Virus record (IMG/VR): IMGVR_UViG_2526164596_000016
Origin: a virus
Lineage: Duplodnaviria > Heunggongvirae > Uroviricota > Caudoviricetes
Length of the DNA stretch: 33,174 bases
Strand: one strand, 5' to 3'
The notes under the pieces are model-generated. The model saw only the letters and a list, made by a program, of their open reading frames with translations. It was not told the origin of the DNA and made no database searches. This document shows positions 1-32,271 of this stretch, piece after piece. Both the position numbers and the translations under genes were made by a program. Within the stretch, counting starts at the first letter, position 1. Each line of letters begins with the position of its first letter.

Positions 1-981
1 TTATAACGTCACTCCGCCTTTTAGTGGATTCAGAGCGACGGCATTTTGCAGGTAGTCAGGCGCAAGGTGCGCATAGGCCATCGTCTGCTGAATGCTCGCA
101 TGTCCCAGAATCTGTTGCAGTGCGATTATATTGCCCCCATTCATCATGAAATGGCTTGCGAATGTATGCCGCAGGATGTGGGTTGCCTGATTGGGTGGTA
201 TATCAGGTTTCACTCTGCGTAAAATCCCGCAAAATTTCTCATAATCAACTTTGAATAATTTGGCGCTGGCCTCCTCTTTAACTTTTTTCTCCAGTTCCTC
301 AGAAATCGGCACGGTTCGCTTTTTACCGTTTTTGGTTTTCAGGAAGGTAACCCTGCAATTTGTAATCTGTGCTGGTTTTAGCGTGGCAACTTCCGTCCAT
401 CTTCCTCCAGTGCTCAGACATAAAAGCGCGACAAGTAAGTCATCACCAGCCAAAACATTTAACAGTTTTTCGATTTCTGCTTTTTCCAGGAACGTCATTT
501 CAGGGTTGGCCTCCGCCAGTGGCGGCAGTCCGTGAATTGGGTGTTGCCCGGAAAATTCATCCAATTGAATTAATTTTGTGAACATGCCGGATAATCGGTA
601 CATGTCACGGTTTATCGTTGCGGCACTGATACCATCACGTAGTCGCATGGAACGATAATCCATCAAAGCCCTTTTGCTCATCCGGCTCACTGGTATATCA
701 CCTATGCCGCTGATGGTTTTGAGTAGATGATTAAACTCTTTTGTTCCATGCTCGTGGTTTTGCCCGTGATATTTCCACCAGATGTCCAGCAACTCACTCA
801 AAGTTCGGCGGTCTGCTCGCTGGCCTCCCCATTCTTTCTGACTGGCATTGGCGATTGTGTATCGCTCAAATGCTAGTGCTTCAGCTTTTCTTTCGAATTT
901 CCTGCGGATGCGTTTTCCGTCGCGACCGCGAGGTCTAATGTCCACTTCATAGCGACCGTCATCGAGCTTCTTAATTGCCAT
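1..981 (-). CDS. int: Tyrosine site-specific integrase (P2 Int-like)
   Basis: ORF 1-1011 minus; likely start at MAIKKLDDGRYEVDIRP (ATG at 981). C-terminal HxLRHTFAS...Y region typical of tyrosine recombinases. Position at prophage left end next to C. Confidence 0.9.
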   Translation of the reverse strand: MAIKKLDDGRYEVDIRPRGRDGKRIRRKFERKAEALAFERYTIANASQKEWGGQRADRRTLSELLDIWWKYHGQNHEHGTKEFNHLLKTISGIGDIPVSRMSKRALMDYRSMRLRDGISAATINRDMYRLSGMFTKLIQLDEFSGQHPIHGLPPLAEANPEMTFLEKAEIEKLLNVLAGDDLLVALLCLSTGGRWTEVATLKPAQITNCRVTFLKTKNGKKRTVPISEELEKKVKEEASAKLFKVDYEKFCGILRRVKPDIPPNQATHILRHTFASHFMMNGGNIIALQQILGHASIQQTMAYAHLAPDYLQNAVALNPLKGGVTL

Positions 982-1050
982 AAGAAAGCCCTCCGGCGCT
1001 GTATTCACCATCTTGGTAGCAAATGGTGAAAATGTAATCTTTATATAGAG

Positions 1051-1344
1051 TTAGCCAATCCTTTTCGCGGAGTGGTTGGACTCTGTTGACTCTGGCCCAA
1101 TGTGCGCGAGAGCCGGTGCGATTTGTCCTGCGTCCGGCGCGGTTTTATCTGTCATAAGCCATAGAGCATATTTTTGGAATGTGGGATGCATAGTGATTTT
1201 TAGCAAAGCTGTGCCACCGGGTTCAAAGTTTCCTCCTTCATATTTTTTAAGTGTGCTTAGCGGTAACTCTATGATTTCACAGAATTTTGATTGGCTTAGC
1301 CCTTCAGCCTCACGCAAGGCCTTAATCTTTTCGCTTAATTTCAT
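1051..1344 (-). CDS. C: Immunity repressor, P2 C-like helix-turn-helix protein
   Basis: 97-aa ORF with ATG at 1344; sequence FQKYALWLMTDKTAPDAGQIAPALAHIG resembles P2 C as recalled; transcribed divergently from cox. Confidence 0.8.
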   Translation of the reverse strand: MKLSEKIKALREAEGLSQSKFCEIIELPLSTLKKYEGGNFEPGGTALLKITMHPTFQKYALWLMTDKTAPDAGQIAPALAHIGPESTESNHSAKRIG

Positions 1345-1374
1345 TTGACATGGTGCCTATATAGGGACTAAATT
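1345..1374 (+). promoter_or_regulatory. Candidate early promoter Pe: TTGACA (1345-1350), 18-bp spacer, TAAATT (1369-1374)
   Basis: Read directly: consensus -35 hexamer directly abutting the C start codon, weaker -10; faces cox. Not verified experimentally. Confidence 0.4.
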
Positions 1375-1403
1375 CCCTCAAAACTGGAACCTATATAGGT
1401 TCC
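1356..1403. promoter_or_regulatory. Putative operator: two copies of CCTATATAGG (1356-1365 and 1390-1399), the second inside a perfect 18-bp palindrome GGAACCTATATAGGTTCC (1386-1403)
   Basis: Repeats read directly in the C/cox intergenic region, 34 bp centre to centre, overlapping the candidate Pe spacer and start region. Confidence 0.5.
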
Positions 1404-1465
1404 ATTGATTTGAGAATAAACCAGCGTCTAAACGGTTTTGAGTGGTTTAGAAAGGGCTGGATCCT

Positions 1466-1753
1466 ATGAGGGTACCATATATGGACGCTGAAAATTATGT
1501 GATTCAGTATCCGCTTGATGCGGTTCATGTGGATAAATTTGCTGATTTATTAGGGAAGCCAAAGACAGCCGTCAGTGAAATGGTGAAGGCAAATAAATTA
1601 CCAATTATTGAATTGCGTGATCCTTGCAAACCGAAGGCTCGTGCCGGTGAAAAATGGGTTTTCATTCCTGAGTTTAATCGCGCTGTACGTGAGGCGTTTT
1701 ATAACCGACCGGTTGAACAGCGTGATGCATGGCTTTTGTGGATGGGGTTGTGA
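1466..1753 (+). CDS. cox: Cox/Apl-like excision and switch regulator
   Basis: 95-aa ORF first in the rightward early operon; KLPIIELRDP...GEKWVFIPEFN...DAWLLWMGL resembles P2 Cox as recalled. Confidence 0.65.
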   Translation: MRVPYMDAENYVIQYPLDAVHVDKFADLLGKPKTAVSEMVKANKLPIIELRDPCKPKARAGEKWVFIPEFNRAVREAFYNRPVEQRDAWLLWMGL

Positions 1754-1755
1754 TT

Positions 1756-1926
1756 ATGAATGAGCCGCGTTGTATTGCTCAGTTACTGCGTAACGAAAGC
1801 CCCAGGGCGATTGACTTCACCATCACCCACGGGAAGGGTCGCAAGGGAATCATTATCCGCACCAAAAAACAGAGTCCGTTAAAAAAGGCTCTGACCTTTC
1901 TGAAAAGCCGGAGGGTCTGGAAATGA
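1756..1926 (+). CDS. Hypothetical small early protein
   Basis: ATG at 1756 three nt after cox stop, same frame as ORF 1729-1926; no recognisable motif. Confidence 0.4.
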   Translation: MNEPRCIAQLLRNESPRAIDFTITHGKGRKGIIIRTKKQSPLKKALTFLKSRRVWK

Positions 1927-2288
1927 CAGTGATGACGCTTAATCTCGTTGAAAAACAGCCAGCAACTATGCGCCGGATAATTGGTAAGCATCTTGCCGTC
2001 CCTCGCTGGCAGGAGACATGCGATTATTATAATCAGATGATGGAACGCGAACGGCTAACGGTTTGCTTTCATGCGCAGTTAAAACAGCGTCACGCAACGA
2101 TGCGTTTTGAAGAAATGAACGACGTCGAACGTGAACGACTGGTATGTGCAATTGATGAACTGCGTGGGGCATTCTCAAAACGCCGTCAGGTTGGCGCAAG
2201 TGAGTATGCATATATTAGTTTTTTAACAGTCAGTCAGCGCCGTACTTTATTTATGCACGCACGACTGACAGAAAAAGAATTTAACTAG
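1923..2288 (+). CDS. Hypothetical early protein (121 aa), in the position of P2 B/early genes
   Basis: ORF in track, start overlaps the previous stop (operon-like coupling). Function not recognisable from sequence. Confidence 0.5.
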   Translation: MTVMTLNLVEKQPATMRRIIGKHLAVPRWQETCDYYNQMMERERLTVCFHAQLKQRHATMRFEEMNDVERERLVCAIDELRGAFSKRRQVGASEYAYISFLTVSQRRTLFMHARLTEKEFN

Positions 2289-2486
2289 CCATACTGGCGA
2301 ATTAATGAAGAATCATGTTACTGGCGTGATGCTTTATTCCGTGCATTACGTGAATTATTCAGCCTGTTTGAGTATGCACCGACAATTCTGACGTCGGTAA
2401 AACCAGAGCAATATCTGCATTAAATAATTAATCAGAGTTTTTAACGCACTTAATCGTGCGGGGCTTCTTTTTGCCTGGAGAAAGTC

Positions 2487-2711
2487 ATGCATACAGTTTC
2501 TGAAAATCAGTGCGGTAAATTCGCATTACTGCTGCAACAGGCCAGAACCGAAGCACAGGCCGACGCTGCGACGCGCTTTTCTTCTCATCTTGACGCCATG
2601 ATTCGCCACATAACAAAGGCGGAGTTATCCCGCGTGGAGATAGTCGAGCTGCTCAGTCAGGAGTCGGAAAAATTTCACAATATCGGATTGTCTCGCGGGG
2701 AGGTGCTTTGA
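2487..2711 (+). CDS. Hypothetical early protein (74 aa)
   Basis: ORF in track; GGAG-containing leader (CCTGGAGAAAGTCATG); start of a run of overlapping early ORFs. Confidence 0.5.
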
Positions 2712-3013
2712 TGTCCTGTTCTCATTCAGTTGTATTACTGAATAACGCCTTAAAAATCGCCGTTATGGAAAATGGCGATTTGTCTCTTATTCAACTTTGT
2801 CTTGATAAAGAAAAACGCGACATCACTGAATCTGTTATCGCGATTTATCAGAATGAATTAAACCTCCTGTCTGATGTGGTCAATTTACTTGTTAAACGCG
2901 CTGTATTCCACAAGCAAATTTCCTCCGTGGATGAACTGACAAAATTAACGACAGAACTTGCCAGTTATTGCGCTGATGTATCCAGGATACTTAACGATAA
3001 AAGGAGCTGGTAA
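2708..3013 (+). CDS. Hypothetical early protein (101 aa)
   Basis: ORF in track; 4-nt overlap with the upstream gene. Confidence 0.5.
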
Positions 3014-3237
3014 TGCCGGACAACGTAGATTTTATTCAGGAACAACAGGCTGAATTACTGGAGCGCCAGATTAACGCGGCAAGGGTAAAACATTGCGGTG
3101 TTTCTTCGCTGGTTTGCGAAGAGTGTGACGCGCCAATACCTGCTGCCCGTCGTGCGGCTTATCCGTCAGCCACGCGTTGTGTTTCCTGTCAGTCAGTCTT
3201 TGAAGCAAAAAACAAACATTACCGGAGAACGGCATGA
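3013..3237 (+). CDS. TraR/DksA-family C4 zinc-finger protein
   Basis: 74-aa ORF with CxxC...CxxC (CEECDAPIP...RCVSCQ) characteristic of phage TraR/DksA-like zinc fingers. Confidence 0.65.
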   Translation: MPDNVDFIQEQQAELLERQINAARVKHCGVSSLVCEECDAPIPAARRAAYPSATRCVSCQSVFEAKNKHYRRTA

Positions 3238-3509
3238 GTATTCGTATTGAAATTGGCGAACGTTATGTCGTTACCAGTGACAGCTTTCAGTTTATTCTCC
3301 ACGAGAAAAAGAGAGCGGAAAGCGGTAAAAACGCCGGTCAGGAATGGCTGTCGGTGGTTGGTTATTACCCGAAATTAAGCCAGCTCGTTTCCGGCCTGAT
3401 GCATCACGATATTCTGACCGGAAGCGCAAAATCTTTTGCTGATTTAAACGCGCAGGTTGAGCAACTCAGCAAGCGTTGTTCAGAGGCTTTTGGCTCATAT
3501 GGCCGTTAA
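3234..3509 (+). CDS. Hypothetical early protein (91 aa)
   Basis: ORF in track, overlaps neighbours by a few nt; ends as gene A starts. Confidence 0.5.
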   Translation: MSIRIEIGERYVVTSDSFQFILHEKKRAESGKNAGQEWLSVVGYYPKLSQLVSGLMHHDILTGSAKSFADLNAQVEQLSKRCSEAFGSYGR

Positions 3510-5775
3510 AGCCTCCGGGCGTTTTGTCCCTCCGTCAGCATTTGCCGCAGGCACCGGTAAGACGTTTACCGGTGCTTATGCATGGAACGCGCCACGCGAG
3601 GCCGTCGGGCGCGAAAGACCCCTTACACGTGACGAGATGCGTCAGGTGCAAGGTGTTTTATCCACGATTAACCGCCTGCCTTACTTTTTGCGCTCGCTGT
3701 TTACTTCACGCTATGACTACATCCGGCGCAATAAAAGCCCGGTGCACGGGTTTTATTTTCTCACATCCACTTTTCAGCGTCGTTTATGGCCGCGCATTGA
3801 GCGTGTGAATCAGCGCCATGAAATGAACACCGACGCGTCGTTGCTGTTTCTGGCAGAGCGTGACCATTATGCGCGTCTGCCGGGGATGAATGACAAGGAG
3901 CTGAAAAAGTTTGCCGCCCGTATCTCATCGCAGCTTTTCATGATGTATGAGGAACTCTGCGATGCCTGGGTGGATGCGCATGGCGAAAAAGAATCGCTGT
4001 TTACGGATGAGGCGCAGGATCATCTGTATGGTCATGTTGCTGGCGCTGCACGTGCTTTCAATATTTCCCCGCTCTACTGGAAAAAATACCGTAAAGGACA
4101 GATAACCACGAGGCAGGCATATTCTGCCATTGCCCGTCTGTTTAACGATGAGTGGTGGACTCATCAGCTTAAAGGCCAGCGTATGCGCTGGCATGAGGCG
4201 TTACTGATTGCTGTCGGGGAGGTGAATAAAGACCGTTCTCCTTATGCCAGTAAACATGCCATTCGTGATGTACGTGCACGCCGCCAGGCAAATCTGGAAT
4301 TTCTTAAATCGTGTGACCTTGAAAACAGGGAAACCGGCGAGCGCATCGACCTTATCAGTAAGGTGATGGGCAGTATTTCTAATCCTGAAATTCGCCGGAT
4401 GGAGCTGATGAACACCATCGCCGGTATTGAGCGTTACGCCGCCGCAGAGGGTGATGTGGGGATGTTTATCACGCTGACCGCGCCGTCAAAGTATCATCCG
4501 ACACGTCAGGTCAGAAAAGGCGAAAGTAAAACCGTCCAGCTAAATCACGGCTGGAACGATGAGGCATTTAATCCAAAGGATGCGCAGCGTTATCTCTGCC
4601 GTATCTGGAGCCTGATGCGCACGGCATTCAAGGATAATGATTTACAGGTCTACGGGTTGCGAGTCGTCGAGCCACACCACGACGGAACGCCGCACTGGCA
4701 TATGATGCTTTTTTGTAATCCACGCCAGCGTAACCAGATTATCGAAATCATGCGTCGCTATGCGCTCAAAGAGGATGGCGACGAAAGAGGAGCCGCGCGA
4801 AACCGTTTTCAGGCGAAACACCTTAACCGGGGCGGTGCTGCGGGGTATATCGCGAAATACATCTCAAAAAATATCGACGGATATGCACTGGATGGTCAGC
4901 TCGATAATGATACCGGCAGACCGCTGAAAGACACTGCCGCGGCTGTTACCGCATGGGCGTCAACGTGGCGCATCCCGCAATTTAAAACGGTTGGTCTGCC
5001 GACAATGGGGGCTTACCGTGAACTACGCAAATTGCCTCGCGGCGTCAGCATTGCTCATGAGTTTGACGAGCGCGTCGAGGCTGCACGCGCCGCTGCAGAC
5101 AGTGGTGATTTTGCGTTGTATATCAGCGCGCAGGGCGGGGCAAATGTCCCGCGCGATTGTCAGACTGTCAGGGTCGCCCGTAGCCCGTCGGATGACGTTA
5201 ACGAGTACGAGGAAGAAGTCGAGAGAGTGGTCGGCATTTACGCGCCGCATCTCGGCGCGCGTCATATTCATATCACCAGAACGACGGACTGGCGCATTGT
5301 GCCGAAAGTTCCGGTCGTTGAGCCTTTGACTTTAAAAAGCGGCATCGCCGCGCCTCGGAGTCCTGTCAATAACTGTGGAAAGCTCACCGGTGGTGATACT
5401 TCGTTACCAGCTCCCACACCTTCTGAGCACGCCGCAGCAGTGCTTAATCTGGTTGATGACGGTGTCATCGAATGGAATGACCCGGAGGTCGTGAGGGCGC
5501 TCAGAGGTGCATTAAAACATGGCCTGAGAACACCAAATCGCCAGCAAAGAAACGGAAGCCCGTTAAAACCGCATGAAATGGCACCATCGGCCAGACTGAC
5601 CCGGTCGGAACGAATGCAAATTACCCGTATCCGCGTTGACCTTGCTCAGAACGGTATCAGGCCGCAGCGATGGGAGCTTGAGGCGCTGGCGCGTGGGGCA
5701 ACCGTAAATTATGACGGGAAAAAATTCACGTATCCGGTCGCTAATGAGTGGTCGGTTTTTTCAGTTAAACAATAA
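3499..5775 (+). CDS. A: Rolling-circle replication initiator/endonuclease, P2 gpA-like
   Basis: Start taken at MAVKASGRFVPP (ATG 3499). Contains HWHMMLF (HUH-type motif) and AAGYIAKYISK (active-site Tyr region); length and sequence match recalled P2 A. Confidence 0.9.
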   Translation: MAVKASGRFVPPSAFAAGTGKTFTGAYAWNAPREAVGRERPLTRDEMRQVQGVLSTINRLPYFLRSLFTSRYDYIRRNKSPVHGFYFLTSTFQRRLWPRIERVNQRHEMNTDASLLFLAERDHYARLPGMNDKELKKFAARISSQLFMMYEELCDAWVDAHGEKESLFTDEAQDHLYGHVAGAARAFNISPLYWKKYRKGQITTRQAYSAIARLFNDEWWTHQLKGQRMRWHEALLIAVGEVNKDRSPYASKHAIRDVRARRQANLEFLKSCDLENRETGERIDLISKVMGSISNPEIRRMELMNTIAGIERYAAAEGDVGMFITLTAPSKYHPTRQVRKGESKTVQLNHGWNDEAFNPKDAQRYLCRIWSLMRTAFKDNDLQVYGLRVVEPHHDGTPHWHMMLFCNPRQRNQIIEIMRRYALKEDGDERGAARNRFQAKHLNRGGAAGYIAKYISKNIDGYALDGQLDNDTGRPLKDTAAAVTAWASTWRIPQFKTVGLPTMGAYRELRKLPRGVSIAHEFDERVEAARAAADSGDFALYISAQGGANVPRDCQTVRVARSPSDDVNEYEEEVERVVGIYAPHLGARHIHITRTTDWRIVPKVPVVEPLTLKSGIAAPRSPVNNCGKLTGGDTSLPAPTPSEHAAAVLNLVDDGVIEWNDPEVVRALRGALKHGLRTPNRQQRNGSPLKPHEMAPSARLTRSERMQITRIRVDLAQNGIRPQRWELEALARGATVNYDGKKFTYPVANEWSVFSVKQ

Positions 5776-5827
5776 TGACTACTACTGCAGTGTTGTGGGA
5801 ATGTTATAGTGTTTGTGGGATTTTTCT

Positions 5828-5858
5828 ATGAAAAACAATGAATTAATCTGTTTTTCAT
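5828..5858. other. AT-rich hairpin: perfect 10-bp inverted repeat ATGAAAAACA / TGTTTTTCAT with 11-nt loop
   Basis: Read directly, between gene A stop and the methyltransferase promoter region; could act as a terminator or insulator at the cargo boundary. Confidence 0.3.
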
Positions 5859-5921
5859 ATTGAGCTAATTTTTTATGGCCACAGTTGTTAAAAAGTGAGA
5901 ACATAATCTTGTTCAAAACCT

Positions 5922-5951
5922 GCTTCTATATACGGAGGCTTTCGCTATAAT
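5922..5951 (+). promoter_or_regulatory. Candidate promoter for the methyltransferase: consensus -10 TATAAT at 5946-5951, poor -35
   Basis: Read directly; followed by strong SD AGGAGG (5966-5971) 5 nt before ATG 5977. Confidence 0.35.
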
Positions 5952-5976
5952 ACGCGGTCGGTTTTAGGAGGGGATA

Positions 5977-6921
5977 ATGCCAACAGTAGTTTCACTTTTT
6001 TCTGGATGCGGTGGTTCCGATGCGGGGGTTTTGAGAGCCGGCTTTGATGTGCTTATGGCCAACGATATCTTGCCGTATGCGCGCGATGTTTATATTGCCA
6101 ATCATCCAGAAACTGATTACATATTAGGCAATATTGCTGATGTAACTACTTTTCCTAAATCTGATTTGCTGGTAGGTTGTTATCCATGTCAGGGATTCAG
6201 CCAGGGTGGTGCGCGTAAAGCCGATCGAAAAATTAATACTCTTTATTTAGAGTTTGCTAGAGCTTTAAACAATATAAAGCCTAAAGCTTTTATAGTAGAA
6301 AACGTGTCTGGTATGGTTAGAAAAAATTTTGAGCATTTGTTATCTGACCAGATCAGGGTTTTTACTGAAGCAGGTTATACTGTTTCCGCAAAAGTTTTAA
6401 ATGCGGCTGAATATGGAGTAGCGCAGGAAAGAAAAAGAATATTTATCGTAGGAATCCGTAATGATTTCAAAGTTAAGTACGAGTTCCCTCAGCCAACTCA
6501 TGGGCCAGCAACTGGCGTCAACTATGTTACTATTAAAGATGCTATAGGGCATTTACCTGAATGGCCAGAAGGTGAATTTTATGATATGGGATTCCATTGG
6601 TATTATATGTCTCGCAATCGTCGCCAGGATTGGGATCAAATTTCAAAGACAATAGTTGCTAATGCAAGGCATATGCCGTTGCATCCTGTCAGTCCTCCGA
6701 TGGAGAAAGTAAGAACTGATGAATGGAGATTTGTTGAGGATCGGAGAGCTCGCAGATTCAGTTTTCGAGAGGCAGCACTATTACAAGGGTTTGAGGATCT
6801 AGTGTTTCCAGAAACAAATGCTGCAAGTCTTGGCATGAAATACACGGTGGTTGGTAATGCAGTGCCTCCGCCGCTTTTTGAAGCTGTAACGAAGGCATTG
6901 CCAATAGAATTATGGGATTGA
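5977..6921 (+). CDS. DNA (cytosine-5)-methyltransferase, Dcm-like
   Basis: 314-aa ORF with C5-MTase motifs in canonical order: FSGCGG (motif I, AdoMet), GCYPCQGFS (motif IV, catalytic Cys), ENV (VI), QERKRIFIVG (VIII), RRFSFREAALLQGF (IX), VGNAVPPPLF (X). Strong RBS. Confidence 0.85.
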   Translation: MPTVVSLFSGCGGSDAGVLRAGFDVLMANDILPYARDVYIANHPETDYILGNIADVTTFPKSDLLVGCYPCQGFSQGGARKADRKINTLYLEFARALNNIKPKAFIVENVSGMVRKNFEHLLSDQIRVFTEAGYTVSAKVLNAAEYGVAQERKRIFIVGIRNDFKVKYEFPQPTHGPATGVNYVTIKDAIGHLPEWPEGEFYDMGFHWYYMSRNRRQDWDQISKTIVANARHMPLHPVSPPMEKVRTDEWRFVEDRRARRFSFREAALLQGFEDLVFPETNAASLGMKYTVVGNAVPPPLFEAVTKALPIELWD

Positions 6922-6928
6922 TAAGCTA

Positions 6929-7924
6929 TTAAGGCTCTGGATTTAATGTATAAAGCTCTTCCTCAAATTCGCGAAACCAATCAGAGGTAGTTATCGCTTC
7001 CCATTGGTTTGCCTTATCAAGTAGATATATGATTCTCAACCTATCTAATAATAATACCCCAGCGGTTGCGTGTGTGCTTACCCATTCGCCATTTGCTTCC
7101 CGATAGAAAACAGGCGTGAACATTGTTGATGGATGCTGGAACGCAATTTGGAAATAGGTGGTCAGTTTTAACACGTTAGCCTCTAATGTTTTGCTTGGCC
7201 ACCCTGTTTCTTGTGCACCACATTGACCAAGAATTCCATAGTTGCTAGTTTGACCATCAGGAAATTCCACTGTAGCAATTAGGTCAAACCCGGCATCACC
7301 AGATGTGGGAGCTCTATTTATTTCCCTTGTGTTTAAACTACAAACTCCAAGATCTTTTCCTAAAGTTTGTAGAGCTGTCCGAAGATTTGTTCCATAATAA
7401 TTTTGCCTATCATCGGAGTTAGCATCAAAAATTCTTACGGTGCCATGTGCAGGTAAGAGAGAAATCATTGCTACTTTACATACTCTGGCAAAGCTCTTTG
7501 CCCAACGTTGTGCTGCTCCTTTAATCGACTTAAAGGATCTAAGTCTAGAGCAGCAAAGAAGAAAAACATATATTCGTTGTTGTTGGTTTAGATTTTCTTT
7601 AATAATTATCTCATCACCTGAAATTATAAATGGATATATTTTGCCAAGAGCACTTTCTCTATATTCGAGTTGTGTCCAAACATCTTCGAGTTGCTCTTCA
7701 AAACGATCATTTCTCTCAGCGTCTCCATTAATTTCTTCTTCAGAATTACATTCTTCATCAATTTCTTCAACGCTTGTTATGCCGAATTTTCTTACTGAAT
7801 CTAAATCATTTTTATGTAGTGAGTTACGTCCGGTATAATTAATTACCGTGAGTAACTCGGCTAAATCTGCAAACAAATGAGGAGAGTTGGGATGCATAAC
7901 TCCTACTTCAAAAGTCATCATCAC
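6929..7924 (-). CDS. Hypothetical protein (331 aa) with acidic N-terminal region; candidate effector or nuclease partner
   Basis: ORF in track; GTG/ATG start cluster (GAGGTGATGATGACT) overlaps the upstream frame stop, suggesting translational coupling; converges on the MTase with a 7-bp gap. No motif recognised. Confidence 0.6.
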   Translation of the reverse strand: MMMTFEVGVMHPNSPHLFADLAELLTVINYTGRNSLHKNDLDSVRKFGITSVEEIDEECNSEEEINGDAERNDRFEEQLEDVWTQLEYRESALGKIYPFIISGDEIIIKENLNQQQRIYVFLLCCSRLRSFKSIKGAAQRWAKSFARVCKVAMISLLPAHGTVRIFDANSDDRQNYYGTNLRTALQTLGKDLGVCSLNTREINRAPTSGDAGFDLIATVEFPDGQTSNYGILGQCGAQETGWPSKTLEANVLKLTTYFQIAFQHPSTMFTPVFYREANGEWVSTHATAGVLLLDRLRIIYLLDKANQWEAITTSDWFREFEEELYTLNPEP

Positions 7925-8438
7925 CTCTGCTATTTTTCTCTGCTATTTCAGAACCTATAAGCTTAATATGTTTATTGATTCTTCGTGCTACTTCATGGGC
8001 CTGTCTATCATACTCTACCGTGGCAACCATGCCTGCTGCATCTATCAAAGCTGCTTCAACTTGATAAAGTAACTGGAGAAAGTCCTTAGTAATATCAGAT
8101 GTCAATTGATAGGCAACTGCGAGTGGAGCCCCCATTCGGAATTGCTCCAATGCCTTAGGGCTACTTACAACAGCAGCTAGTTCTCTTAAATTACGTGATT
8201 CTCCTACACGAGTTTTTTTATCCTCGCCTTTTTTATATAACCATTCAGTTAGTTCTTTTATTTCTTTGTTCTTTAAACTCTTAGAATTGATGATAGGATG
8301 ACTTGGTATTGTGTCTCCATCGTCTTCGATTGAAACTCCGACAAACTGGCCTAACCGCTCATCAGCAAGTGCTGTTGATAATACTGAAAATTTAATCGTT
8401 TCTTCATCTAGCTTTTCAATACCATAAAAATCATTTTT
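7908..8438 (-). CDS. Open frame continuing the ParB-like gene after a -1 shift (C-terminal extension or frameshifted fragment)
   Basis: Hand translation: the frame is open from stop TAA (8439-8441) down to 7908 but has no ATG/GTG/TTG before 8150; an extra A in the A7 run (plus-strand T7 at 8434-8440) would fuse it to the ParB-like ORF. Confidence 0.35.
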   Translation of the reverse strand, partial: KNDFYGIEKLDEETIKFSVLSTALADERLGQFVGVSIEDDGDTIPSHPIINSKSLKNKEIKELTEWLYKKGEDKKTRVGESRNLRELAAVVSSPKALEQFRMGAPLAVAYQLTSDITKDFLQLLYQVEAALIDAAGMVATVEYDRQAHEVARRINKHIKLIGSEIAEKNSRGDDDF

Positions 8439-9028
8439 TTAATGATTTCATACACCGCTAAAGCGTCTAGGTTACGCTTGATATGATCCCTACGACTGCC
8501 AATAGCTCTGGCAACCTCATAGTAGCGTAGCATTGGATCCAGATTTGCATTGGTATAATCAAAAAGCTGTTTAATATATCGAGCTTTTGATAAGGGTTCC
8601 CATTGTTTGACACCAGTAATATGTCTGAAACCAAGGTACGGAAGAATCTCTTCTCTTGTTTGGCGCTCAATGACAGGAACACGATCGACCGTATGTTTTG
8701 CATTTGATGCAATTTCTCGTAGTCGAGCACTTGGATTTTCACATAGTGTCGGATCGCGTAATAATTTGACCGCGGATAGGCGACGGTTTCCTTCAACTAC
8801 AATGTACTTCCCCGGCGCTCCACTATCAGGAATGACAATCAATGGTTCTCCAGGGAAAAAACCATTTTCCGCAATAGCACTCATTAGGTCTTCGATAGAT
8901 GTTGAGGTTGCTATGTAGTTAATCATTCCCAATTGGTCACGAGACACGCCTTCAGGAAGTCTTGGGTTTTCTGTGTCAAGTTCCAAATCATCTAGCGGAA
9001 CATAAAGTATTTCTGAATCAGCAATCAT
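8408..9028 (-). CDS. ParB/Srx-like nuclease-domain protein (N-terminal part)
   Basis: Start taken at MIADSEILYVPLDD (ATG 9028, SD GGAG 6 nt upstream). Contains LELDTENPR and YIVVEGNRRLSAVKLL, the hallmark GxRR arginine motif of the ParB N-terminal fold. Terminates just after an A7 run. Confidence 0.7.
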   Translation of the reverse strand: MIADSEILYVPLDDLELDTENPRLPEGVSRDQLGMINYIATSTSIEDLMSAIAENGFFPGEPLIVIPDSGAPGKYIVVEGNRRLSAVKLLRDPTLCENPSARLREIASNAKHTVDRVPVIERQTREEILPYLGFRHITGVKQWEPLSKARYIKQLFDYTNANLDPMLRYYEVARAIGSRRDHIKRNLDALAVYEIIKKMIFMVLKS

Positions 9029-9075
9029 CTGGATCTCCGTTGAACATGTCCACGAGAAGGAGCACAAAGTTATTT

Positions 9076-9104
9076 CATAACATGCAATATACTCATTCTG
9101 TAGC
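9076..9104 (-). promoter_or_regulatory. Candidate sigma70 promoter for the leftward cargo operon: -35 TTCATT (plus 9099-9104), 17-bp spacer, -10 TATATT (plus 9076-9081)
   Basis: Read directly on the minus strand, about 50 nt upstream of the ParB-like start. Confidence 0.35.
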
Positions 9105-9254
9105 CATAAATGAATTATTCATGATGTAAGATTCGCGTTGATGTGCGTGAATTCGCAAGTAATTATACAGCAAGGTTTGATTGGGTATCGTCAGCACCAG
9201 TGCGGTTCCAACGTACTCATGCAACTGCATTAAAACCGCCCCATGAAGTGGGCG

Positions 9255-9273
9255 GGCGAGGCGGGGAAAGCAC
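9255..9273. other. cos cohesive-end sequence GGCGAGGCGGGGAAAGCAC
   Basis: 19-mer read directly; matches the P2/186/P4 cohesive end as I recall it, at the expected position upstream of Q. Confidence 0.6.
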
Positions 9274-9415
9274 TGCGCGCTGGCGGTGGTGCTGATTTTA
9301 TTTTTTCAGCGTCTGAGCGCGTCGTGATGGCGTTTAGAGTCTGCGCCGGGGCGTTGGTGTGTCTGCGGGGTGTTTTGTGCGGTGGTGAGCGTGTGAGGGT
9401 GTGATGACGGGGTGT

Positions 9416-9437
9416 AAAAAAGCCGCCCGCAGGCGGC
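9416..9437 (-). terminator. Rho-independent terminator downstream of Q (stem GCCGCC/GGCGGC, loop CGCA, then a T run on the minus strand)
   Basis: Read directly: plus-strand AAAAAA (9416-9421) followed by GCCGCCCGCAGGCGGC. Confidence 0.45.
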
Positions 9438-9442
9438 GATGT

Positions 9443-10477
9443 TCAGCCGTTGTCAGTGTCCAGTGAGTAGTTTTTAAAGCGGATGACCTCCTGACCGAGC
9501 CAGCCGTTTATTTCCCGAATCCTGTCCTGTAACGGGATAAGCTCATTGCGGACAAAGACCTTTGCCACTTTCTCAATATCACCCAGCGACCCGACGTTCT
9601 CCGGCTTGCCGCCCATCAACTGAAAGGGGATGCGGTGCGCGTCCAGCAGGTCAGCGGCGCTGGCTTTTTTGATATTAAAAAAATCGTCTTTCGTCGCCAC
9701 TTCACTGAGCGGGATAATTTTAATGCCGTCAGCTTTCCCCTGCGGGGCATAGAGAAACAGATTTTTAAAGTTATTGCGGCCTTTCGACTTAACCATGTTT
9801 TCGCGAAGCATTTCGATATCGTTGCGATCCTGCACGGCATCAGTGACGTACATGATGTATCCGGCATGTGCGCCGTTTTCGTAATACTTGCGGCGGAACA
9901 GCGTGGCCGACTCATTCAGCCAGGCAGAATTAAGGGCGCTGAGATATTCCGGCAGGCCGTACAGCTCCTGATTAATATCCGGCTCCAGCAGGTGAAACAC
10001 GGAGCCGGGCGTGAAAGGTGTCGGCTCGTTGAAGGACGGCACCCACCAGTAAACATCCTCTTCCACACCACGGCGGGTATATTTTGCCGGTGAGGTTTCC
10101 AGTCTGATGACCTTACCGGTGGTGCTGTAACGCTTTTCCAGAAACGCATTACCGAACACCAGAAAATCCAGCACAAAGCGGCTGAAATCCTGCTGGGAAA
10201 GCCACGGATGCGGGATAAATGTCGAGGCCAGAATATTACGTTTGACGTAAATCGGTGAGCTGTGATGCACGGCAGCACGCAGGCTTTTTGCCAGACCGGT
10301 AAAGCTGATCGGTGGCTCATACCATCTGCCGTTACTGATGCACTCGACGTAATCCAGAATGTCACGGCGGTCGAGTACCGGCACCGGCTCACCAAAGGTG
10401 AATGCTTCCATTTTCGGGGCGCTGGCGGTCATTGTTTTTGCCGCAGGTTGCGGTGTTTTCCCTTTTTTCTTGCTCAT
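9443..10477 (-). CDS. Q: Portal protein, P2 gpQ-like
   Basis: 344-aa ORF; N-terminus MSKKKGKTPQPAAKTMTASAPKMEAFTFGEP and length match recalled P2 Q; first gene leftward from cos. Confidence 0.9.
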   Translation of the reverse strand: MSKKKGKTPQPAAKTMTASAPKMEAFTFGEPVPVLDRRDILDYVECISNGRWYEPPISFTGLAKSLRAAVHHSSPIYVKRNILASTFIPHPWLSQQDFSRFVLDFLVFGNAFLEKRYSTTGKVIRLETSPAKYTRRGVEEDVYWWVPSFNEPTPFTPGSVFHLLEPDINQELYGLPEYLSALNSAWLNESATLFRRKYYENGAHAGYIMYVTDAVQDRNDIEMLRENMVKSKGRNNFKNLFLYAPQGKADGIKIIPLSEVATKDDFFNIKKASAADLLDAHRIPFQLMGGKPENVGSLGDIEKVAKVFVRNELIPLQDRIREINGWLGQEVIRFKNYSLDTDNG

Positions 10478-12249
10478 CAGTAAAACTCCAGAATGGTGGA
10501 TGTCAGCGGGGTGCTGATACCGGCGGTGAGTGGCTCATTTAACAGGGCGTGCATGGTCGCCCAGGCGAGGTCGGCGTGGCTGGCTTCCTCGCTGCGGCTG
10601 GCCTCATAGGTGGCGCTGCGTCCGCTGCTGGTCATGGTCTTGCGGATAGCCATAAACGAGCTGGTGATGTCGGTGGCGCTGACGTCATATTCCAGACAGC
10701 CACGGCGGATGACGTCTTTTGCCTTGAGCACCATTGCGGTTTTCATTTCCGGTGTGTAGCGGATATCACGCGCGGCGGGATAGAACGAGCGCACGAGCTG
10801 GAACACGCCGACACCGAGGCCGGTGGCATCAATTCCGATGTATTCGACGTTGTATTTTTCGGTGAGTTTGCGGATGGATTCCGCCTGGGTGGCAAAGTCC
10901 ATGCCTTTCCACTGGTGACGCTCAAGTATTCTGAATTTGCCACCGGCCACCACCGGCGGTGCCAGTACCACGCATCCGGCGCTGTCGCCACGGTGTGACG
11001 GGTCGTAACCAATCCATACCGGGCGGGAGCCGAACGGATTGGCGGCAAACGGCGCATAGTCTTCCCATTCTTCCAGCGTGTCGACCATGCAGCGTTGCAG
11101 CTCCTCGAACGGGAACACCGATGCCTTGTCGTCAACAAATTCACACATGAACAGGTTTTTAAAATCGTCGGCGCTGTTTTCACGTTTGAGCTGCTCAATG
11201 TCGAACAGCGTGCAGCCGCCTTTCAGGGCGTCCTCAATGGTGACAATCTGCCGCCACTGGCCGTCCGCACAGAGAAGCCCACCGGCAAGGGCGTTATGAC
11301 TGACGTCGATTTCCACGCGTTCGGCGGCGCTGGCGCGTCCCCGGTTAAACAGTTCACCCGACCAGAACGGGTAGGCGTCGTGCGCCAGTGTGGACGGGGT
11401 GGAGAAATAGGTCGAGCGCAGGTGACTCTGTGAGGCCATACCTGATGCCACCTTACGCAGTACCTGAAAATTCGGTATCCAGAAAATCTCGTCGACGTAC
11501 AGGTCGCCGTTATGGCTCTGCGCGGTGTTGGAGTTGGTGCCGAGAAAAATCAGTTTTGCGCCGTTATTGCCCAGGACAATCGGGTCACCGGTCAGGTCAA
11601 CGTCAACCAGCCGGGCAAAGGCGATGATGTATTCGCGGAACACATACGCCTGCGTTTTACTGGCCGACAGAAAAATCTGGTTATGACCGGTTTTCAGGGC
11701 GCGCAGCAGCGCCTCGCGGGAAAAATAAAACGTCGCGCCAATCTGGCGGGATTTCAGGATATCGCGGATGCGGTGCTCAAGCCCGGCGCGATACCAGTGC
11801 AACTGATAGTCGAAAGACTGCTCAAAGAAAATCTGCTCCAGCTTTTCGATAGCCTCGTCACTGAAAAAATTCTTTTTCGGTTTGCGACGCCCGCCTTTGT
11901 TGCGGTTAGCGACGTTCGGATTAAGGTCTGCCTCGTTGCCGGTCTGGCTGTAACGGTTGACCCGTGCCAGCCGTTCAATCTGGCGTCCGAGCAGGTCAAT
12001 TTCCTTGAAGTCACCGCCGGTTTTCTGCGGTTTGATGATGAGCTGGGTCAGCCGCGCTTCCAGACTCATTTCGACACGGCTGATGGGGGCAACGCTGTCC
12101 CAGCCGTCGCGCTGTTTCCAGCTCTGCACCGTCGGGCGTTTCATCTGCAACATGGCGGCAATCTGCGGCACGGAAAACCCCTGCCAGTACAGCAGCGCCG
12201 CCTGACGACGCGGATCGTGTAAAAGAGTGGTGTCTGTGGTGATGGTCAT
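10477..12249 (-). CDS. P: Terminase large (ATPase) subunit, P2 gpP-like
   Basis: ORF 10477-12279 minus; start chosen at MTITTDTTLL giving 590 aa as in P2; synteny Q-P. Confidence 0.9.
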   Translation of the reverse strand: MTITTDTTLLHDPRRQAALLYWQGFSVPQIAAMLQMKRPTVQSWKQRDGWDSVAPISRVEMSLEARLTQLIIKPQKTGGDFKEIDLLGRQIERLARVNRYSQTGNEADLNPNVANRNKGGRRKPKKNFFSDEAIEKLEQIFFEQSFDYQLHWYRAGLEHRIRDILKSRQIGATFYFSREALLRALKTGHNQIFLSASKTQAYVFREYIIAFARLVDVDLTGDPIVLGNNGAKLIFLGTNSNTAQSHNGDLYVDEIFWIPNFQVLRKVASGMASQSHLRSTYFSTPSTLAHDAYPFWSGELFNRGRASAAERVEIDVSHNALAGGLLCADGQWRQIVTIEDALKGGCTLFDIEQLKRENSADDFKNLFMCEFVDDKASVFPFEELQRCMVDTLEEWEDYAPFAANPFGSRPVWIGYDPSHRGDSAGCVVLAPPVVAGGKFRILERHQWKGMDFATQAESIRKLTEKYNVEYIGIDATGLGVGVFQLVRSFYPAARDIRYTPEMKTAMVLKAKDVIRRGCLEYDVSATDITSSFMAIRKTMTSSGRSATYEASRSEEASHADLAWATMHALLNEPLTAGISTPLTSTILEFY

Positions 12250-21454: not shown

Positions 21455-22058
21455 TTCGCGACTGCTGCCGACCGGCTCATCACCGCTTGAAGTTGCCGCC
21501 GCAAAAGCCTGTGCGGAAATTGAAAAAACGCCGGTCAGTATTCGTGAGCTGTGGAACCCGGACACCTGCCCGGCAAATCTGCTGCCGTGGCTGGCGTGGT
21601 CATTTTCGGTTGACCGCTGGGATGATAAGTGGCCGGAAGCGACAAAACGCGCTGTTATCCGCGATGCGTATTTCATTCACTGCCATAAGGGCACTATAGG
21701 CGCAATCCGGCGTGTGGTGGAGCCGCTCGGCTATCTGATTGAGGTGAGGGAGTGGTGGCAGCTCAACGAGGAGCCGGGGACGTTCCGCATCGTTGTTGGC
21801 GTGCTTGAGCAGGGTATTACCGAGGAAATGTATCAGGAGCTGGAGCGCCTCGTTGCTGATGCAAAACCGGCAAGCCGCCATCTGACGGGACTGGCTATCA
21901 GTTTAAGTACAACCGGCAACATTTTTGCCGGTGCGGGATGCTATCACGGCGACGCCCTGACGGTTTATCCCTACACCCCGGAGGCCATTATTGTCGGAGG
22001 GGATTATTTCCCGGCCTCGGCCATTCATTTAATTGATAACCTGAGAGTAAACGCATGA
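21447..22058 (+). CDS. I: Baseplate protein I
   Basis: ORF overlapping the J stop; start may lie further in. Confidence 0.8.
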   Translation: MSDSRLLPTGSSPLEVAAAKACAEIEKTPVSIRELWNPDTCPANLLPWLAWSFSVDRWDDKWPEATKRAVIRDAYFIHCHKGTIGAIRRVVEPLGYLIEVREWWQLNEEPGTFRIVVGVLEQGITEEMYQELERLVADAKPASRHLTGLAISLSTTGNIFAGAGCYHGDALTVYPYTPEAIIVGGDYFPASAIHLIDNLRVNA

Positions 22059-23347
22059 CAGTGAAATACTACGCCATTCTGACTAATCAGGGCGCAGCAC
22101 GGCTGGCTAACGCGACGATGCTCGGCAGTAAGCTGAATCTGACGCAAATGGCCGTTGGTGATGCGAATGGTGTCTTGCCGACACCAGACCCGGCACAGAC
22201 AAAACTGATTAACCAGAAACGCATTGCGCCGCTGAATCTTCTGAGTGTTGACCCGAACAACCAGAGCCAGATTATTGCGGAGCAAATCATCCCTGAGAAC
22301 GAGGGCGGATTCTGGATCCGTGAGATTGGGCTTTATGATGAAGAAGGCGTACTCATTGCGGTGGCGAACTGCCCGGAAACGTACAAACCGCAGTTGCAGG
22401 AAGGCAGTGGTCGTACCCAGACTATCCGCATGATTCTGGTTGTCACGAATACCGAAGCTATTACGCTGAAAATCGACCCGTCGGTGGTACTGGCGACCCG
22501 TAAATACGTGGATGATGAAGTCCTGGAATTAAGGCTGTATGTGGATGACCAGATGAGAAACCACATTGCCGCACAGGATCCTCATACCCAGTATGCACAG
22601 AAACATAATCCGACATTTACCGGAGAACCAAAAGCGCCGACGCCTGCCGCAGGAAATAACACCACGCGGATTGCGACCACTGAGTTTGTTCAGGCCGCTA
22701 TTACCGCTCTGATTAACGGTGCGCCAGCCACACTGGACACACTGAAAGAAATTGCCGCGGCCATTAACAATGACCCGAAATTCAGCACCACCATTAACAA
22801 TGCGCTGGCAGGTAAACAACCGCTGGACAATACGCTGACTCATTTGAGTGGAAAGGATGTTGCCGGTCTTCTCGTATACCTTGGTTTGGGAGAAGGTTCG
22901 GCATTACCCGTTGGTGTGCCTGTTCCGTGGCCTTCAGCCACACCGCCTACTGGCTGGCTGAAATGCAACGGTGCGGCTTTTTCTGCTGAAGAATACCCGG
23001 AACTGGCAAAGGTTTATCCGACAAATAAATTGCCTGATTTACGCGGTGAATTTATTCGTGGCTGGGATGACGGACGTGGAGTGGATGCCGGGCGACAATT
23101 ATTATCTTCACAGGGGGATGCAATAAGAAATATTGAGGGATTCGCAGATGGCGGGATCGGTATGTCTTTTGATGCAATCAGAGGGGCTTTTTATGATGCA
23201 GGAACACGATCTGCGAGAATGCCGAATAACACAACTGATATAGGCAAAACCGATGACCTTGGATTCGACGCCTCTCGTGTCGTGCCAACAGCTAATGAAA
23301 ACCGTCCACGTAACATCGCCTTTAATTATATTGTGAGGGCTGCATAA
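22055..23347 (+). CDS. H: Tail fibre protein H (constant N-terminal part plus the currently expressed variable C-terminus)
   Basis: 430-aa ORF; N-terminal YAILTNQGAARLANA...MAVGDANG...GGFWIREIGLYDEEGVLIAVAN typical of P2 H / Mu S-type fibres; crosses the hix-like site at 22881. Confidence 0.85.
   Translation: MTVKYYAILTNQGAARLANATMLGSKLNLTQMAVGDANGVLPTPDPAQTKLINQKRIAPLNLLSVDPNNQSQIIAEQIIPENEGGFWIREIGLYDEEGVLIAVANCPETYKPQLQEGSGRTQTIRMILVVTNTEAITLKIDPSVVLATRKYVDDEVLELRLYVDDQMRNHIAAQDPHTQYAQKHNPTFTGEPKAPTPAAGNNTTRIATTEFVQAAITALINGAPATLDTLKEIAAAINNDPKFSTTINNALAGKQPLDNTLTHLSGKDVAGLLVYLGLGEGSALPVGVPVPWPSATPPTGWLKCNGAAFSAEEYPELAKVYPTNKLPDLRGEFIRGWDDGRGVDAGRQLLSSQGDAIRNIEGFADGGIGMSFDAIRGAFYDAGTRSARMPNNTTDIGKTDDLGFDASRVVPTANENRPRNIAFNYIVRAA
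22869..22894. repeat. hix/gix-like inversion site (left): TTCTCGTATACC TT GGTTTGGGAGAA
   Basis: Read directly; 15-bp core TTGGTTTGGGAGAAG (22881-22895) recurs in inverted orientation at 24699-24713; half-sites resemble hixL as recalled. Confidence 0.6.
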
Positions 23348-23940
23348 TGAAACCTGTTTTTGATGAAAATGGGCTGACTACAGTGCCGGGTGATATGCGT
23401 TGTTTTTATTATGATGCAGTAACGTCTGAATATTCGGGCTGGTCTGATGAATATATTAATACTGGCGTAAGTATGCCCGCCTGTTCCACTGGTATTGACC
23501 CGGGCGAATACATTCCGGGGAAAGTGGCAGTATTTACGGGTAAGGGATGGAGCCATGAAGAAGACCACCGCAATGAGACTGTTTACTCAATCGAAAATGG
23601 CGTAGCTGTTACAGTGGATTATATCGGTGCCATCAAAGACGGTTATGTCACGCTTTCACCGTTAACGCCATACGATAAATGGGATGGTGAGAAATGGGTG
23701 ACAGATACTGAGGCACAGCATAGTGCCGCACTAGACGCGGCAGAAGCACAGCGCCAGTCGCTGATTGATGCTGCAATGGCTTCCATCAGTCTGATTCAAC
23801 TGAAATTACAGGCCGGGCGGAAGCTGACGCAGGCAGAAACAACCCGACTTAACGCCGTGCTGGATTATATTGACGCGGTGACGGTAACAGATACCAGCAC
23901 TGCGCCGGATGTCATCTGGCCTGAACTGCCGAAGGCGTAG
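23347..23940 (+). CDS. G: Tail fibre assembly chaperone G (expressed orientation)
   Basis: 197-aa ORF immediately after H with a conserved Tfa-type C-terminus (...DTSTAPDVIWPELPKA). Confidence 0.8.
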   Translation: MKPVFDENGLTTVPGDMRCFYYDAVTSEYSGWSDEYINTGVSMPACSTGIDPGEYIPGKVAVFTGKGWSHEEDHRNETVYSIENGVAVTVDYIGAIKDGYVTLSPLTPYDKWDGEKWVTDTEAQHSAALDAAEAQRQSLIDAAMASISLIQLKLQAGRKLTQAETTRLNAVLDYIDAVTVTDTSTAPDVIWPELPKA

Positions 23941-24352
23941 GCCATTCAATATCTGGCGCACCGGAAGTATCGACCAGTTCCAGTGTGTCCAGATAATCCA
24001 GCCACAAATTATATTGCGCCAGTTCCTCACCTTTCAGGCGACCAATCGCCGCTTTACCAGGCCATTGCTTACTGTTTATGTATTCGTTGACCTGATTAAT
24101 CAATTGCTGCTTTTCCAGTTCGGCTGCGGCAATTTGTTCCTCATGAGTTGGCGGTGGAATATCAATCCATGCAGGCATTCCGTCGATGACACCTCTGTAT
24201 TTTCCTTCTGGTGCTTCCTTCATAAATTCGGCGGCAACAGTGTCGTCAATTTCGATTCCATCATCGGGCCATTCGCCGGATTCCTGATAAGCGATTTTAA
24301 GCTCCACAGGGAAAAACGCATTTTTATCGGCACTGAAAATATATTTCTGCAT
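23912..24352 (-). CDS. Alternative tail fibre assembly chaperone (silent inverted copy)
   Basis: 146-aa minus-strand ORF with the same Tfa-type C-terminus (...DTSGAPDIEWPTPSAVQAR), converging on G. Confidence 0.75.
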   Translation of the reverse strand: MQKYIFSADKNAFFPVELKIAYQESGEWPDDGIEIDDTVAAEFMKEAPEGKYRGVIDGMPAWIDIPPPTHEEQIAAAELEKQQLINQVNEYINSKQWPGKAAIGRLKGEELAQYNLWLDYLDTLELVDTSGAPDIEWPTPSAVQAR

Positions 24353-24354
24353 TT

Positions 24355-24711: not shown

Positions 24712-24725
24712 AACGTTTATGAAAA
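24700..24725. repeat. hix/gix-like inversion site (right), read on the minus strand as TTTTCATAAACG TT GGTTTGGGAGAA
   Basis: Read directly; right half identical to the left site, left half close to the hix half-site as recalled. Confidence 0.6.
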
Positions 24726-24780
24726 TGCAGAGATAACGGCTAACTGGCATCATCTCCGGTTTTTATTCAGGGGGATGATC

Positions 24781-32189: not shown

Positions 32190-32271
32190 TATCCTCAATT
32201 TGCCTGCTGCTTAATGCATTGCAGATGATTTGCTTCCGTTATACTAGCGTCAGTTGATAGCGGGAGTATTT

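Follow-up and report, generated by a model that had tools for sequence, protein, structure and literature searches.

What is the function of a protein that is encoded tail to tail with a DNA methylase gene in a prophage and has neither name nor assigned family, and does this protein act alone? The question is raised by gene X, which lies on the minus strand at positions 6929-7918 of the IMG/VR virus record IMGVR_UViG_2526164596_000016, a P2-like (Peduovirus) Escherichia coli prophage. All coordinates refer to this stretch of DNA at its full length of 33,174 nucleotides (nt), hereafter called the window. An earlier interpretation made from the letters alone (the sequence-only reading) had taken X for a toxin-like effector held in check by the neighbouring methylase. 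The analysis reported here leads, with moderate confidence, to another answer: X would be the nuclease subunit of a restriction-modification-like defence cassette of three genes, in which it is associated with a ParB/KorB-like partner and a HaeIII-like C5 methylase, and which is carried as cargo by P2-like and other prophages and by islands.

The X gene, its partner and the adjoining methylase

The cassette and the insert that contains it have the following features.

5776-9254: insert of low guanine-plus-cytosine (GC) content between replication gene A and the cos/portal side, corresponding to the P2 old/tin defence hotspot
5977-6921, plus strand: C5 cytosine DNA methyltransferase, HaeIII-like, 314 amino acids (aa) (RefSeq WP_001143636; TIGR00675 dcm)
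6922-6928: gap of 7 bp, terminator-free, between the convergent stops of X and the methylase
6929-7918, minus strand: protein X, candidate nuclease subunit, 329 aa, from the open reading frame (ORF) and its translation (RefSeq WP_000142509, 'hypothetical protein'; phrog_3984)
7004-7453, minus strand: predicted C-terminal Mrr-like PD-(D/E)xK domain of X (residues ~156-305)
7190-7297, minus strand: motif block of X, from D208 to K243
7682-7768, minus strand: acidic stretch of X (residues 51-79), from the translation
7908-7918, minus strand: 11-nt overlap between the ParB-like stop (TGA, 7910-7908) and the X start (ATG, 7918-7916), from the sequence
7927-7924, minus strand: Shine-Dalgarno sequence GAGG, just upstream of the X start
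7908-9028, minus strand: ParB/KorB-like gene, coding for 373 aa in its intact form and present here as two ORFs, 8408-9028 and 7908-8150, owing to a frameshift
8434-8440: homopolymer T7 (A7 on the coding strand), a 1-bp deletion that breaks the ParB-like frame, from the alignment with locus L002 and Yersinia phage HQ103

The most constant companion of X is the ParB-like gene. It is found directly upstream of X and on the same strand in all 82 loci for which upstream sequence is available, i.e., 27 genome or metagenome loci (among L003-L036) and 55 IMG/VR viral loci. The two proteins also vary together, since their pairwise identities across 12 loci are correlated with r = 0.88 (Mantel p ~0.0005).

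The junction between these two genes is conserved as well. The minus-strand ORF described in the sequence-only reading was recovered at 6929-7924, with 331 codons when counted from GTG, as was its cluster of starts (GTG at 7924-7922, ATG at 7921-7919, and ATG at 7918-7916, within AGAGGTGATGATGACTTTTGA). Translation is likely to begin at ATG 7918 and to yield 329 aa, because this is the start called in RefSeq, GAGG lies 5 nt upstream of it, and the homologues begin with M-x-F. The upstream frame that the sequence-only reading had noticed is the 3′ end of the 373-aa ParB-like gene, which is annotated elsewhere as 'ParB N-terminal domain-containing protein'. Its TGA at 7908-7910 does lie inside gene X, but the overlap measured from ATG 7918 is 11 nt and not 16. 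An identical 11-nt stop/start overlap was found in 35 of 43 non-redundant homologous junctions. The coupling geometry thus belongs to the family as a whole and is no peculiarity of the sequence in the window. The proposed coupling geometry is thus real for the family, but it is not intact in the window, where the partner gene carries a frameshift.

This frameshift is confined to the window. The region 5900-9500 matches E. coli O111:H21 strain 15A with a sole difference, one extra T in that strain, and it is present at a coverage of at least 80% in 48 of 5,426 complete E. coli genomes. In the Yersinia phage HQ103 (L001, MZ420230.2), the cassette stretch is 99.9% identical, and the linear record ends at about window position 9254. 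A run of eight T occurs at the site 8434-8440 in HQ103, in strain 15A and in all 48 of the complete cassette-bearing E. coli genomes, which makes the T7 run unique to the window among these 48 genomes and HQ103. It reflects either a sequencing error in the homopolymer or an inactivating mutation peculiar to the strain. As written, translation of the ParB-like gene would end at 8408, ~490 nt ahead of the X start. Two PHROGs families consist of fragments of the ParB-like gene, phrog_18017 corresponding to residues 1-226 and phrog_25440 to residues 299-373; split ParB-like genes therefore seem to recur in phage records.

X itself belongs to a large and well-conserved family: 273 homologues or clusters reach E <= 1e-3 (expect value) in a collection clustered at 90% identity, and when clustering is at 50% identity, the representatives at E <= 1e-3 number 1,257. 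Nearly all members are 315-350 aa long, and they come from Enterobacteria, Pseudomonas, Burkholderia, Acinetobacter and methanotrophs, in addition to the 55 IMG/VR viral contigs. These many homologues, along with the recurring 11-nt overlap, indicate that X is not a chance ORF.

On the other side of X, the methylase is a typical C5 enzyme. It matches the Pfam model DNA_methylase (PF00145) over residues 3-308 (E 5.5e-65) with the full set of C5 motifs, and it aligns end to end with M.HaeIII (1dct) over residues 4-308 (E 1.4e-48). Because this resemblance includes the variable target-recognition region (the 'MSRNR' segment), the target is probably GGCC or a similar site. Matches of the methylase to the PADLOC model DruM (Druantia type II) were set aside as generic C5-methylase similarity, as no DruE, DruF or DruG is present. 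In the whole window, GGCC is mildly depleted (127 observed versus 182 expected), which says little, as the depletion of GATC is far larger (35 observed versus 133 expected from trinucleotide counts).

A HaeIII-like C5 methylase of a single family adjoins the ParB-like/X pair in all 55 viral loci, and it converges on X in 54 of them. Even at viral loci where X is reduced to 22-28% identity, the adjoining methylase is still recognized at E 1e-138 or better. Among the 19 distinct closer genome or metagenome loci with enough downstream sequence, 13 contain the methylase, and one distant metagenomic locus has the ParB-like gene, X and the methylase on one strand, next to an integrase. In the window, the sequence-only reading had placed the two convergent stops 7 bp apart with no terminator between them, and both points hold: the X stop (TAA, 6929-6931) and the methylase stop (TGA, 6919-6921) enclose the gap 6922-6928, and a terminator scan found none there or elsewhere in 5977-9028 on either strand. 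In other loci, the X and methylase genes abut or overlap by 4 bp. That the convergent transcripts overlap, as had been argued, is a reasonable inference.

Other records add three observations. In the GenBank record of HQ103, the methylase ORF (L001 3078-4022) is left unannotated; its translation is intact and identical to that of the window. Two Methylophilaceae loci (L005 and L006) have an additional gene separating X from the methylase, at 7165-7929 and 3165-4097, respectively, which codes for an HNH_2 (PF13391) endonuclease. Finally, a distant pair (L035, GCA_040777565.1 contig, 1-10963) has its ParB-like gene in two pieces and is embedded in a dnd phosphorothioation island, together with genes for DndC/D/E, a cysteine desulfurase, GmrSD and a dnd-associated protein; the pair is followed by a gene for a 373-aa protein of unassigned family. 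This last locus hints that the pair is able to associate with other DNA-modification systems.

Predicted fold and putative active site of protein X

Sequence searches place X in no characterised family. NCBIfam and PADLOC gave no match, PHROGs returned only families of 'unknown function', and searches of the PDB with X, both as a single sequence and as a profile, yielded chance matches only. The gathering score of Mrr_cat (PF04471) was not reached by the X of the window, which had no Mrr_cat match; when 76 members of the family were scanned against Pfam, Mrr_cat was the top weak match, with E 0.005 in one member.

Structure prediction was more informative. The AlphaFold model of X, built on 45 homologues, is confident (predicted local distance difference test, pLDDT, 87; predicted template modelling score, pTM, 0.88) and comprises a helical N-terminal part, a small unit of strand and helix that we take for a winged helix, and a C-terminal alpha/beta domain. 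The acidic N-terminal stretch mentioned in the sequence-only reading is indeed present, at residues 51-79 of the 329-aa product; it is modelled as helical with lower confidence (pLDDT 73-77), and both its length and its sequence vary among homologues. In a Foldseek search with the model, the sole match of note was MspJI (E 0.011, probability 0.94), and the nuclease-type structural matches were restriction-enzyme chains only, namely MspJI, AspBHI, NgoMIV and LlaBIII. PD-(D/E)xK and HNH cores had both been named as possible folds: PD-(D/E)xK neighbours were thus found among restriction enzymes, albeit with weak scores, while no HNH/DUF1524 match or fold appeared in X or in the ParB-like protein.

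The conservation pattern agrees with a nuclease site. In an alignment of 76 members, down to 22% identity, D208, D212, Q232, W240, D292, R293 and R295 are invariant, as are D18, E21 and R87 in the long helical N-terminal region. Four motifs of X fall in the same order in E. coli Mrr.

GDxGxD(L/I)(V/I) in X, GDGGIDGV in Mrr
(F/L)GQC(A/G) in X, YVQAK in Mrr
F(I/T)P in X, FIT in Mrr
LxDRxRI in X, LVDGERL in Mrr

A profile alignment of X with Mrr (hhalign) had a probability of 53-79%, with only the last 22 columns aligned confidently; these hold the final motif, for which the probability was 62-79%. A relaxed run also paired the GDxGxD and F(I/T)P motifs, which did not raise the score, and set the QAK of Mrr against residues 236-240 of X and not against Q232; the pairing with Q232 is our own reading. 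The Mrr homologues listed were at least 70% identical to one another, so that no deep Mrr profile was possible.

The second of these motifs is the one that departs from the canonical site. Of the 76 aligned members of the X family, 4 have Lys at the position of the QxK lysine and 66 have Ala or Gly instead, whereas K243, 11 residues downstream, is kept in 74 of 76. The two members that lack K243 both carry the canonical QxK lysine. This complementary pattern, although drawn from a small sample, suggests that the catalytic lysine of X has moved rather than been lost. From the model and the motifs together, X is most likely a protein with a winged helix and a divergent Mrr-type PD-(D/E)xK nuclease domain.

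The ParB-like protein, for its part, matches ParB_N and TIGR00180, and not DUF262. Its Box-II arginine motif, EGNRRL, is intact and invariant. Its model resembles KorB, ParB and PadC, with a ParB/Srx N-domain, a middle domain like a helix-turn-helix (HTH) and helical C-terminal hairpins, and no nuclease domain was found in it.

Proposed mechanism and competing explanations

In the mechanism that we propose, the methylase would mark resident DNA, probably at GGCC. The ParB-like protein would bind DNA in a nucleoside triphosphate (NTP)-dependent manner and recruit or license X, as its Box-II motif EGNRR, its HTH-like middle domain and its helical C-terminus lead us to infer. X would cut incoming unmarked DNA by means of its putative winged helix and a Mrr-type site consisting of D208, D212, Q232 and K243, the latter replacing the canonical lysine. 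Methylation could act in two ways: it would either block cutting, as in classical restriction-modification, or be sensed as 'self' and thereby license the module. A module that is not lethal by itself is favoured, because intact pairs occur at loci devoid of an adjacent methylase, and a classical lethal enzyme is unlikely since the pair survives the loss of the methylase, unless an unlinked methylase protects the host; such protection would also be compatible with these loci. The location was counted in favour of a defence role, as the cassette lies in a low-GC insert within a known P2 defence hotspot. Linkage, co-variation, folds and motif conservation were observed here, and from them we infer the complex, the use of NTP, the cleavage and the methylation specificity; as everything beyond linkage, fold and conservation is deduced, our confidence in the cassette is only moderate.

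A more specific version of this mechanism is tentative, and we regard it as possible rather than probable. A ParB-type NTP-gated clamp would read the 5-methylcytosine (m5C) state of DNA and license a Mrr-derived nuclease with a relocated lysine. This would define a new class of modification-linked immunity, based on a sliding or spreading switch rather than on a site-bound enzyme or a helicase motor, and portable between modification systems, i.e., the m5C methylases of phages and possibly phosphorothioation, as hinted by L035.

Several observations weigh against the cassette as we describe it. In the window, it may be inactive owing to the frameshift in the partner gene. The Pfam search with the X of the window gave only a sub-threshold chance match (W_rich_C, E 0.09), and 72 of the 76 members lack the canonical catalytic lysine, so that the activity depends on the assumed migration of this residue. 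Intact pairs are found without an adjacent C5 methylase at six of the closer loci (L013, L017, L018, L023, L024, L025; methanotrophs) and at the distant loci L033, L035 and L036. At L013, a metagenome-assembled genome of Methylococcaceae, 13 C-terminal codons of the methylase (FEAVAKALPPILN and stop, at 6045-6086) persist downstream of X on the opposite strand, and the methylase has therefore been deleted while the ParB-like/X pair stayed intact. Co-variation between X and the methylase is weak (r = 0.40). Lastly, no experiment on the cassette was found in the literature.

Comparison with known systems helps to place these parts. SspE works beside a DNA-modification module whose loss is not lethal, and it senses phosphorothioate; a similar absence of lethality would fit the methylase-less loci of the cassette. 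In LlaJI and BsuMI, one or more m5C methylases are accompanied by an NTPase, a McrB-type AAA+ GTPase, and by a distinct nuclease subunit of the McrC type taken from type IV machinery. The cassette would follow the same logic as LlaJI and BsuMI with other parts, a ParB-fold protein and a Mrr-type nuclease. Like classical type II systems, it has a methylase gene next to the gene of an endonuclease candidate, but the classical endonuclease acts by itself, as a homodimer or tetramer, without an NTPase partner, whereas X appears, on comparative evidence, to be coupled to a ParB-like gene. Mrr, MspJI, AspBHI and LlaBIII have a winged helix and a C-terminal PD-(D/E)xK domain like those predicted for X, and Mrr-type proteins share the motif order of X (GDxGxD, a strand ending in Q, a F(I/T)P-type strand, and a LxD(G/R)xR(L/I) strand-helix). 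X differs from Mrr in its lysine, with the QxK position occupied by Ala or Gly in most members and a conserved Lys downstream, and in its long helical N-terminal region. Moreover, Mrr acts alone against methylated DNA, whereas X always has a ParB-like partner and usually an adjoining methylase.

GmrSD and SspE resemble the pair in joining a ParB-fold NTPase to nuclease modules, as fused or adjacent genes (PMC12373910). In these systems (DUF262 + DUF1524), however, the nuclease is of the His-Me/HNH type, whereas the candidate here is predicted to have the Mrr-type PD-(D/E)xK fold; the DUF262 domain (PF03235) has DGQQR where the partner of X has EGNRR and matches ParB_N, the broader ParB/Srx fold being common to both; and the modification here is m5C, not phosphorothioate or hypermodification of the target. 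PD-lambda-5, a two-gene prophage system, was described as a compact 'RM+Abi' (restriction-modification plus abortive infection) system with a methyltransferase (Vassallo et al., 2022; PMC9519451). The N-terminal domain of the ParB-like protein matches the PADLOC PD-Lambda-5_A profiles (E 1e-28), but only over the first ~165 of ~440 profile positions, and X has no match to PD-Lambda-5_B. The top domain prediction for PD-lambda-5 is a methyltransferase, which the length of the PADLOC profiles (440-508 positions) leads us to place in protein A, behind the ParB-like N-terminus. The partner also has the layout of the ParB, KorB and PadC clamps, i.e., a ParB/Srx N-domain with Box-II, an HTH-like domain and helical C-terminal hairpins, but it differs from them in being always paired with X and in residing in defence hotspots. 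The ParB fold binds cytidine, adenosine or guanosine triphosphate, depending on the family (PMC12704722).

Three other explanations compete with the proposed one. In the main rival, the ParB-like protein and X would form a modification-dependent, type IV-like pair, a split GmrS/GmrD or Mrr analogue that attacks foreign modified DNA, with the methylase as a separate passenger that, for example, shields the phage from HaeIII-type host restriction. The combination of a ParB-fold NTPase with a nuclease is indeed the GmrSD-type architecture (PMC12373910), modification dependence is shared by the closest nuclease folds (MspJI and AspBHI) and by Mrr, to which the motifs are related, and both the persistence of the pair without an adjacent methylase, even after its deletion, and the weak co-variation of X with the methylase would be expected. 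We nevertheless consider this unlikely: a near-identical family of methylases is retained in 55 of 55 viral loci, often with stops overlapping by 4 bp, which makes chance co-travel improbable; a m5C-dependent nuclease would attack self DNA when encoded beside a m5C methylase, except where the two enzymes differ in specificity; and some enzymes with the Mrr-type fold, LlaBIII and NgoMIV among them, cleave DNA that carries no modification. X could also be a DNA-binding or regulatory partner devoid of nuclease activity, the ParB-like protein being involved in maintenance of the element, partition, silencing or control of the methylase. The QxK lysine, missing in most members, and the putative winged helix of X would agree with this, as would the resemblance of the partner to a bona fide ParB/KorB protein with its HTH-like domain and helical C-terminus, and the plasmid-like carrier state in which HQ103, with its 99.9% identical cassette, is reported to persist (PMC10321612, PMC11177050). 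It is nonetheless a distinctly poor candidate, given that D208, D212 and Q232 are invariant and the lysine pattern complementary, as expected of a working metal site. In addition, no ParA family appeared among the genes tabulated or scanned around the pair (no scan with a ParA model covered all loci), no parS-type repeats were noted (no search aimed at parS sites was made), and the cassette is found in a defence hotspot and, within elements integrated into the chromosome, in islands that carry an integrase. A role in partition, linked to the carrier state of HQ103, was dropped, as the text of the PLoS Pathogens paper on HQ103 mentions neither ParB, partition nor methylation; the ParB-like gene of this phage is not discussed in connection with the carrier state in Yersinia pestis.

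The explanation closest to the sequence-only reading is also the least likely, and we think it very improbable. Here, X would be a stand-alone type II endonuclease, an isoschizomer of HaeIII held in check by the methylase, and the ParB-like gene would be incidental. The tight convergence of X and a HaeIII-like methylase is an arrangement characteristic of type II systems, but wherever upstream sequence is available, X has the ParB-like gene coupled to it, the two proteins co-vary strongly, neither Pfam (above the cut-off) nor PADLOC, both of which hold restriction-endonuclease models, gives a match for X, and intact copies of X exist without the methylase. The same strict pairing and co-evolution with the ParB-like gene, together with the persistence of methylase-less pairs, argue against a stand-alone toxin restrained by the methylase. 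The idea of X as the effector survives in part, as X is the sole protein of the cassette with a predicted nuclease fold and is linked to a C5 methylase in the great majority of loci, but it would not act on its own. The three-gene cassette with X as its nuclease subunit thus remains our preferred explanation.

Prophage context and significance of the cassette

The remainder of the window is organized as follows.

1-1011: integrase
3457-5775: replication gene A (gpA; Pfam Phage_GPA)
9443-10477: portal, followed by terminase, capsid and tail genes
22055-23347, plus strand: tail fibre
23347-23940, plus strand: fibre assembly gene
24355-24753, minus strand: alternative fibre C-terminus, oppositely oriented (Gp53-like_C)
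24775-25374, plus strand: Hin/Gin-type serine invertase (Resolvase + HTH_7)
32254-33174: cation-efflux gene (Cation_efflux + ZT_dimer), which runs off the right end of the window

The three genes of the cassette have a GC content of 39.9%, compared with 53.1% in the rest of the window. The P2 locus that carries old and tin is a hotspot of anti-phage systems (PMC9122126; PMC9519451). The cation-efflux gene is probably host chromosome flanking the prophage. The region 22055-25374 is an apparent tail-fibre inversion module, which suggests host-range switching like that of Mu and P1. Scans of the window with Rfam and for tRNA genes gave no matches.

In the literature, the cassette was catalogued in Table S5 of Rousset (2022), which lists P2-hotspot loci (PMC9122126). 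In Table S2 of the same study, which lists the tested systems, neither 'ParB' nor 'DNA_methylase' occurs, and our literature searches retrieved no paper naming or testing the cassette. A survey of the ParB fold described orphan ParB-like proteins on prophages, and the cassette is not among them (PMC12704722). Table S5 also lists another trio at the P2 hotspot, DUF262 + DNA_methylase + HEPN (WP_000351260, WP_001697730 and WP_000373633; PMC9122126). The theme of a ParB-fold protein with a C5 methylase and an effector may thus recur with different effectors. The cassette is best classed as modification-linked restriction, which is a known kind of system, and its combination of parts is uncharacterised and widespread.

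The family of X is large and has neither name nor function in any of the libraries searched. Of 5,426 complete E. coli genomes, 48 carry the cassette, as does one phage isolate of Yersinia pestis, and its locus is the one that has yielded old, tin and many newer defence systems. Should the pair turn out to be methyl-dependent, or X not to be a nuclease, the puzzle would be why a HaeIII-like methylase is so strictly linked to the pair. If the proposed mechanism is true, a ParB-fold NTP switch would join the engines known to drive restriction, and the cassette would offer a small, three-gene system in which to ask how a ParB-type protein reads DNA modification. It would also account for the frequency of ParB-like genes on prophages.

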